Positions 1 to 515 of a stretch of DNA of 515 nt are shown piece by piece. The position numbers and the translations under genes were made by a program. Each line of letters starts with the position of its first letter. The stretch's first letter is position 1. The notes beneath the pieces were generated by a model. That model was not told the DNA's origin and searched no databases. It was given only the letters and a program-made list of their open reading frames with translations. Source of the DNA: Escherichia coli (GTDB lineage Bacteria; Pseudomonadota; Gammaproteobacteria; Enterobacterales; Enterobacteriaceae); the NCBI RefSeq assembly GCF_003334385.1, contig NZ_QOWN01000172.1; one strand, given 5' to 3'.

Positions 1-515
1 GTTGCAATGCTGTTTATGATGCTGTCAGTGCATGGGGTAGAAAGCTGGGCATCTCCAGCAATTTTCATGACCTCAACATCTGCATATCGAATACCGAGGT
101 GTATCAGACCGGCTATGCCTGACTTAAGCCGAGCATTTTCCATAAATAGAACTTTTGCCCGCTGTTTTTCTGCTTCAAGCTCAACGCGCAGCTTCCCTAC
201 CGTTAGCGCAATATCCTCGTTCTCCTGATCGCGGCTTTTGATGTATTGCAGGTTTCTTTCCCGTTCATCCAGCAGTGCCAGCACGGTAGCCGGGTTAGCC
301 TCTGCTATGAATTCAGCGTTTGCATAAGCCTGAGCATCTGTTTCAACCAGGCAGTTAACGTGACATTCTGCAATTACGCCACCGGGTTCTCCTTTCCATT
401 TTTGACAAACAAAAACTCCTGTTAAATTGCCGTGTTGGTTAACAGATGTATGCCCTACGATGTAGCTTCCTTTAGTTGCTTTCTCTGCCTTTTCACGCAG
501 TACCTGATAGTTAAT
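1..515 (-). CDS. Ead/Ea22-like family prophage protein, internal fragment (start lies beyond position 515, stop beyond position 1)
   Basis: Reverse-complement frame with codons at 515-513, 512-510, ... down to 5-3 gives 171 codons and no stop; chance expectation for a random frame of this length is about (61/64)^171, roughly 3e-4. Translation: INYQVLREKAEKATKGSYIVGHTSVNQHGNLTGVFVCQKWKGEPGGVIAECHVNCLVETDAQAYANAEFIAEANPATVLALLDERERNLQYIKSRDQENEDIALTVGKLRVELEAEKQRAKVLFMENARLKSGIAGLIHLGIRYADVEVMKIAGDAQLSTPCTDSIINSIAT. The motifs LREKAEKATKG and NAEFIAEANPATVLALLDE followed by a charged helical stretch match my recollection of Ead/Ea22-like proteins of E. coli lambdoid prophages; no search was run. 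The only in-frame ATGs (+ 141-143 and 66-68) lie in the last third and lack a well-spaced Shine-Dalgarno, so the true start is most likely outside the window. Confidence that this is a real CDS is about 0.85; confidence in the family name is about 0.55. Confidence 0.75.
   Translation of the reverse strand, partial: MNYQVLREKAEKATKGSYIVGHTSVNQHGNLTGVFVCQKWKGEPGGVIAECHVNCLVETDAQAYANAEFIAEANPATVLALLDERERNLQYIKSRDQENEDIALTVGKLRVELEAEKQRAKVLFMENARLKSGIAGLIHLGIRYADVEVMKIAGDAQLSTPCTDSIINSIA

Follow-up and report, generated by a model that had tools for sequence, protein, structure and literature searches.

Which strand of this 515 nucleotide (nt) stretch of Escherichia coli DNA (assembly GCF_003334385.1, contig NZ_QOWN01000172.1; 46% G+C, called the window throughout) is coding? 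The list of open reading frames (ORFs) made for it holds one entry, a plus-strand ORF of 73 amino acids (aa) at positions 7..228. A first-pass annotation had claimed that the real gene instead lies on the minus strand, is open at both window ends and is missing from that list. Our analysis bears this out with high confidence for identity, strand and extent: the window is almost certainly an internal piece (codons 4-174 of 182) of a minus-strand gene for an ead/Ea22-like prophage protein. No point against this gene identity emerged in the analysis, and the checks suggested by the first-pass annotation all turned out on its side.

The Minus Strand Is Open Throughout the Window

A stop count in all six frames of the window showed that minus-strand frame 0, read from position 515 down to 3, contains no stop in 171 codons, as had been claimed, and that the remaining five frames contain 4-14 stops each. 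The ORF-listing tool has a default cut-off of 60 aa and, by its own description, leaves out ORFs that run past either end of the source sequence. The long minus-strand frame is therefore absent from the track, and 7..228 is its lone entry. Among 20,000 dinucleotide-preserving shuffles, 30 (~0.15%) left at least one of the six frames fully open; the longest open run averaged 84 codons. A fully open minus frame is unlikely to be a chance event, though alone it is not overwhelming evidence.

The Window Is Part of an Annotated ead/Ea22-like Gene

At least seven complete E. coli chromosomes contain the window with 100% identity, and in every listed record it lies under a coding sequence (CDS) annotated as ead/Ea22-like family protein. 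In strain 2012EL-2448 (locus L001) this CDS spans 5992..6540, with the window at 6001..6515, and its product is WP_021524342.1 (182 aa). The flanking sequence was read from this 100%-identical record. It contains the in-frame start and stop codons that the first-pass annotation had predicted beyond the two ends. The start codon, GTG, lies 9 nt past window position 515, overlaps the stop codon of the gene before it (GTGA) and has a Shine-Dalgarno sequence, AGGAGG, 6 nt upstream. On the other side the frame closes with a TGA whose last base is 25 nt past window position 1; a single base lies between it and the ATG of the next gene. RefSeq, through its prokaryotic genome annotation pipeline (PGAP), and the phage depositors annotate the same CDS on the same strand. 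Intact in sequence, the gene carries translation-coupling signals and a good ribosome-binding site. The coding features of the window are:

3..515, minus strand: codons 4-174 of the 182-aa ead/Ea22-like CDS (stop-free frame; 100% identity to WP_021524342.1; PF13935 match, E 1.8e-33)
1..2, minus strand: first two bases of codon 175
7..228, plus strand: shadow ORF of 73 aa, antisense to the ea22 gene and sharing its third-codon positions; almost certainly not a gene

No Rfam families and no repeats were found in the window. Promoter-like and terminator-like sites around the gene occur at chance level (2 promoter-like sites seen, 2.4 expected).

The 171-aa translation of the minus frame matches Pfam family PF13935 (Ead_Ea22, IPR025153) over its full model length but for two positions (i-Evalue 1.8e-33, 116.5 bits, query 1-148, model 3-139/139) and PHROG 368 with E 8.8e-59. 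All 8,000 scored candidates from a 5.8-billion-cluster protein database are homologs, and the named ones are ead/Ea22-like; 447 homologs were found among 50%-identity cluster representatives. The coiled-coil core that defines the Ead/Ea22 family is 80% identical to lambda Ea22 over 45 aa and 78% identical to P22 Ead over 40 aa. In L001 and in phage PhiR5_1 the gene has the early-left operon position of the family, between recombination genes and xis/int. The protein also ends in the K/R-G-E tail of the family (PMC7093339), here GIRIKGE, whose codons lie outside the window. Every testable feature that defines an Ead/Ea22 protein is thus present: the match to the family profile, the core sequence, the position in the genome, the architecture and the tail. 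RefSeq already lists the gene under its family name, and the finding is already known. The gene is an ordinary one in a prophage family that is very large and already annotated, and the window adds nothing new on its biochemical role.

The Plus-Strand ORF

If the plus-strand ORF were the real gene, the minus frame would be open by chance. The ORF is the sole complete one of at least 60 aa in the window, it is still open in three relatives, and its peptide has one weak match, to PHROG 13760 (E 3.3e-4, 22 residues, 52-73). However, the plus-strand frame that contains it has 8 stops over the window, and no Shine-Dalgarno-like sequence is found upstream of its ATG in the reverse complement of the fetched flank. 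The exact 73-aa peptide has no occurrence among ~15 billion called proteins, whereas the exact 182-aa minus-strand protein is on 702 contigs. The composition of the peptide is extreme: 16 of its 73 residues are serine (22%), S, T, F, A and R together make up 59%, and only two residues are D, E or K; the first-pass annotation had already described it as rich in serine. No fetched record carries any annotation antisense to the ea22 gene, and it is the minus frame that has the PF13935 match. PHROG 13760 may itself derive from ea22-like genes whose antisense ORFs were called in error.

Minus frame 0 and plus frame 0 have their third-codon positions in common (window positions divisible by 3). The observed excess of third-position substitutions therefore cannot separate the two frames, and the apparent conservation of the plus ORF is accounted for by the wobble positions it shares with the real gene. 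The ratio of non-synonymous to synonymous polymorphism (pN/pS) is lower in the minus frame in nine of nine comparisons (0.13-0.42 vs 0.20-0.71 in the plus frame), with small margins. Substitution patterns separate the two frames only weakly, in the direction that favours the minus frame. What decides the strand is the combination of profile matches, plus-frame stops, translation signals and operon context. The idea that the plus ORF is the gene of this locus is already effectively refuted, and the probability we leave to it is close to nil.

Overlapping antisense genes exist in phages, and both strands might code here, with a small antisense gene embedded in ea22. The plus ORF is kept in the relatives L002 and L006 and there even extends past its stop. 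The evidence against the plus ORF as a real gene weighs equally on such an embedded gene, however. Retention is to be expected of an antisense frame whose wobble positions are also those of a conserved gene, the promoter-like sites are at the chance level given above and a ribosome-binding site is absent. Coding on both strands is thus very improbable. We conclude that ORF 7..228 is a by-product of the codon usage of the coding strand and yields no expressed protein.

The main value of this locus is as a method check, in which an ORF-track artefact was diagnosed correctly. A track of complete ORFs is blind to a gene longer than the window and may offer an antisense shadow ORF in its place. This is the case here, and the warning that the track alone would lead to a mis-call was justified. 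A shadow ORF in a wobble-sharing frame looks conserved, and a simple third-position periodicity test cannot assign the strand.

Location in an Early-Left Prophage Operon

In L001 the gene is part of a co-directional block in which several start and stop codons overlap or abut. It begins with a LexA/CI-family repressor gene, divergent from a Cro/CI-family regulator gene, continues through yfdP/yfdQ/yfdR-like genes and ends with the excisionase and tyrosine integrase genes, which adjoin host mlrA. The ea22 gene is located a few genes upstream of xis and int. PhiR5_1 carries a 96.9%-identical gene annotated as Ea22, which comes after kil, gam, bet, exo, orf60a, orf61 and a TraR-like gene, with xis and int further downstream; this arrangement is the classical exo-xis region (PMC10834534, PMC8614690). 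We assign the ea22 gene of the window to the early-left (pL-type) operon of a lambdoid E. coli prophage. Near-identical intact copies are found in two deposited phage genomes, Lys8385Vzw and PhiR5_1.

The gene could be intact in sequence but a functionless passenger in a decaying cryptic prophage. Two neighbour genes at the 100%-identical locus are frameshifted pseudogenes, a truncated copy of the gene, annotated as incomplete, is present in another strain, and the exo-xis region of lambda is dispensable for replication (PMC10834534). The gene itself gives a different picture: its pN/pS is low against all relatives, with the 0.13-0.42 of the nine comparisons indicating purifying selection, and the identical protein is found on 702 contigs. 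The copies in Lys8385Vzw and PhiR5_1 are intact, as are the ribosome-binding site and the coupling signals. We consider it improbable that the gene is such a passenger.

Protein Modules and Predicted Structure

The protein consists of an N-terminal helix, an alpha/beta module, a long coiled-coil helix, a variable helical C-terminal module and the GIRIKGE tail, in this order. A first AlphaFold2 (AF2) model, built with close homologs, was poor, with a predicted local distance difference test (pLDDT) score of 51.7. A second model, built from a 70-sequence alignment of diverse representatives, reached a mean pLDDT of 85.9; it describes the monomer. Sequence alignment (A1), this model and comparison with Ea22 proteins of phage lambda and of Shiga toxin (Stx) phages divide the minus-strand gene as follows:

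471..515, minus strand: N-terminal conserved helix, aa 4-18, INYQVLREKAEKATK; common to lambda Ea22 and all Stx-phage variants, with invariant columns in A1 and a model helix at 6-15
294..470, minus strand: Stx-phage-type alpha/beta module, aa 19-77, predicted as a three-stranded sheet plus helix; block pLDDT 78-91
159..293, minus strand: family-defining coiled-coil core, aa 78-122, PATVLALLDERERNLQYIKSRDQENEDIALTVGKLRVELEAEKQR; nearly all columns invariant in A1, predicted helix with pLDDT 94-98
3..158, minus strand: variable C-terminal module, aa 123-174, predicted as the end of the long helix plus two short helices

The model places a helix at 6-15, strands at 21-25, 36-43 and 46-55, a helix at 63-75 and a single helix at 78-147 (pLDDT >90); two further helices, 150-162 and 167-176, are predicted with lower confidence. 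The first-pass annotation had described an amphipathic charged helix, and the predicted 70-residue helix at aa 78-147 corresponds to it: 34% of the residues in aa 78-142 are charged, and the heptad contrast is modest. It had also spoken of a recognisable motif without naming one; the conserved core of the family reads LLDERERNxQYIKxRDQENEDIALTVGKLRVELE. What the literature describes as a "63-aa segment," absent from lambda Ea22, is here the alpha/beta module at aa 19-77 (PMC10834534, PMC7093339). In one relative (P0010; A1 columns 19-78) a 30-aa part of this N-terminal alpha/beta module, GSYIVGHTSVNQHGNLTGVFVCQKWKGEPG, is duplicated in tandem.

A fold search against solved structures returned nothing informative. 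The best viral fold matches, in the BFVD database, are Ead/Ea22-like proteins and uncharacterised phage proteins, some of them from Gordonia phages. Among those with E between 1e-3 and 2e-2 are uncharacterised Gordonia and Streptomyces phage proteins. The predicted fold hints that the N-terminal-plus-long-helix architecture of Ead/Ea22 may reach beyond enterobacterial phages.

Comparison With Known Ea22 and Ead Proteins

The closest of the compared proteins in its N-terminal part is Ea22 of the Stx-converting phage vB_EcoS_P27 (variant V3, KU238067, 315 aa). Residues 1-122 are 90% identical (110/122), and this common region comprises the N-terminal helix, the alpha/beta module and the coiled-coil core. 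The P27 gene is located downstream of exo/bet/gam, as here, and has an identical GIRIKGE tail and an identical junction to the next gene (AAAGGAGAGTGAtATG). In contrast, P27 Ea22 has ~180 further residues between core and tail, and the 52-residue C-terminal module of our protein has no significant similarity to it: past residue 122, BLASTP aligned only the last 7 residues.

Lambda Ea22 is also 182 aa long and is encoded by a gene with a GTG start at the same operon position. Its N-terminal helix (MSEINSQALREAAEQA) is similar, its GIRIKGE tail is identical, and 36 of 45 residues of the coiled-coil core are identical (80%; aa 78-122 here, aa 34-78 in lambda). It differs in lacking the alpha/beta module found here at aa 19-77, and its mixed alpha-beta dimeric C-terminal domain (aa ~102-182; nuclear magnetic resonance structure, PMC10834534) has no counterpart here. 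P22 Ead, the other namesake of PF13935 (236 aa, from a Salmonella phage), is identical in 31 of 40 core residues (78%, residues 83-122 here). Its tail is similar (GIKVKGE), its gene has a start/stop overlap with the next gene, eai, and is located in the early "ea" region, whereas its N- and C-terminal regions are unrelated in sequence.

Three known Ea22 types were considered and rejected as assignments. For the lambda type, the search for sequence matches in the Protein Data Bank (PDB) gave none at E<=1, BLASTP aligned only aa 78-122 and the last 7 residues, and the model contains only helices after aa 78. Stx-phage variant V2 carries DUF551 (PF04448), and a Pfam scan of the 171-aa translation (aa 4-174) gave PF13935 only. 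Variant V3, the P27 type, fits the N-terminal 122 aa as described and is rejected beyond residue 122. The assignment was made against lambda, V2 (by its DUF551 signature) and V3, with V1 and the Phi24B/933W modules outside the comparison.

Mosaicism and Distribution

Judged by its alignments, the ea22 gene is a mosaic. Coding nt 1-346/351 are 90-96% identical to many Stx-converting phages, and this DNA identity ends at nt 346-351. The central nt ~232-351 are common to lambda, P22 and many further phages, and coding nt 228-515 are also present in a record titled "Escherichia phage P1." C-terminal modules are swapped freely among otherwise near-identical N-terminal parts, and a GIRIKGE-type tail is common to differing C-terminal modules.

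At least 80% of the window is present in two deposited phage genomes and in 58 of 5,426 complete E. coli genomes. The 3′ part alone, which encodes the C-terminal module (window 1-164), is found in 479 of these genomes, and plasmids account for 215 of its 516 places. Those plasmids that are listed as examples have sizes of ~94-116 kb and may be P1-like phage-plasmids. The difference between module and whole gene (479 vs 58 genomes) suggests that the C-terminal module moves independently.

The C-Terminal Tail and the Junction With the Next Gene

The terminal K/R-G-E motif has been termed "of unknown significance" (PMC7093339). In L001 the GIRIKGE tail is encoded by AAAGGAGAG-TGA, just past window position 1 (6517-6545). 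The last codons are AAA GGA GAG TGA; other relatives have GGA GGT GAG or AAG GGG GAA. At eight of nine fetched loci with this tail type (L001, L002, L005, L006, L007, L008, L010, L012 and L014, the last at 3700-3750) the start of the next gene overlaps the stop codon or is at most 2 nt away. P27 has the same tail/start junction, and it is at precisely this point that a ribosome-binding site is annotated in the deposited record. In lambda the tail is present with no start codon next to it.

A modest idea that follows from these sequences is that the tail may at least partly be a nucleotide-level signal, a Shine-Dalgarno sequence for translational coupling of the next gene. Perhaps it is also a recombination joint between mosaic modules. 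Tentatively, and with some doubt, we propose as a joint reading that the C-terminal module (aa 123-174), which is unlike those of lambda, V2 and V3 and widespread on plasmids, could mark a so far uncharacterised variant of Ea22 with another host partner, and that the K/R-G-E tail would be mainly a nucleotide-level signal and not a protein motif.

Proposed Function

Deletion of ea22 in lambda and Phi24B leads to a shorter latent period, a larger burst and lower host survival, and in lambda fewer lysogens are formed too (PMC7093339). Full-length Ea22 of lambda and of P27 forms tetramers, and the C-terminal domain of lambda Ea22 alone forms a dimer (PMC10834534). By analogy with lambda and Phi24B, the protein encoded here would be made within minutes of infection or induction and would assemble through its coiled coil into a tetramer. 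Its terminal modules would then engage a host or phage partner soon after infection or induction, and the net effect would be delayed lytic growth in favour of host survival and lysogeny. Whether this pro-lysogenic mechanism applies to the variant in the window is, in our estimate, an evenly balanced matter.

Several observations weigh against it. The ea22 phenotype of Phi24B depends on the multiplicity of infection and is not uniformly pro-lysogenic (PMC7093339), and published two-hybrid screens for Ea22 partners found none. The C-terminal module differs from that of every experimentally studied Ea22 compared here. The heptad a/d contrast of the helix is 0.67 vs 0.32, which was matched by 296 of 5,000 shuffles. 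Moreover, neighbour genes in the 100%-identical prophage are frameshifted, and the prophage may be decaying.

The protein might also be a true Ea22 relative with another main role than biasing lysis and lysogeny, such as acting against a defence or stress pathway of the host by means of its exchangeable C-terminal module. The free swapping of C-terminal modules and the 215 plasmid places of this one would fit such a role, and phage accessory genes typically show shuffling of modules in this way. The published Ea22 mechanism, for its part, has no known partners. We regard a different main role as unlikely, though it deserves more weight than the idea of a functionless passenger, and the pro-lysogenic mechanism is our best account.

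Neighboring Genes

The xis and int genes of the L001 prophage (8296-10592) lie directly beside mlrA (yehV). This is an integration site of Stx-type prophages in enterohaemorrhagic E. coli (EHEC) strains. The next gene downstream of ea22 (L001 6542-7057) is split by a frameshift into a pseudogene and a 110-aa remnant; it is intact (171 aa) in PhiR5_1 and Lys8385Vzw, and the intact protein gave no Pfam match.

Two positions downstream of ea22 is a gene for a 252-aa protein (L001 7054-7812; L002 5054-5812; L010 from 1754). It is named hypothetical protein in RefSeq, Ea22 in PhiR5_1 and valyl-tRNA synthetase in Lys8385Vzw. At least the last of these names looks wrong, because the protein gives only a weak partial DUF551 match in Pfam (residues 235-250, E 3.1e-4).
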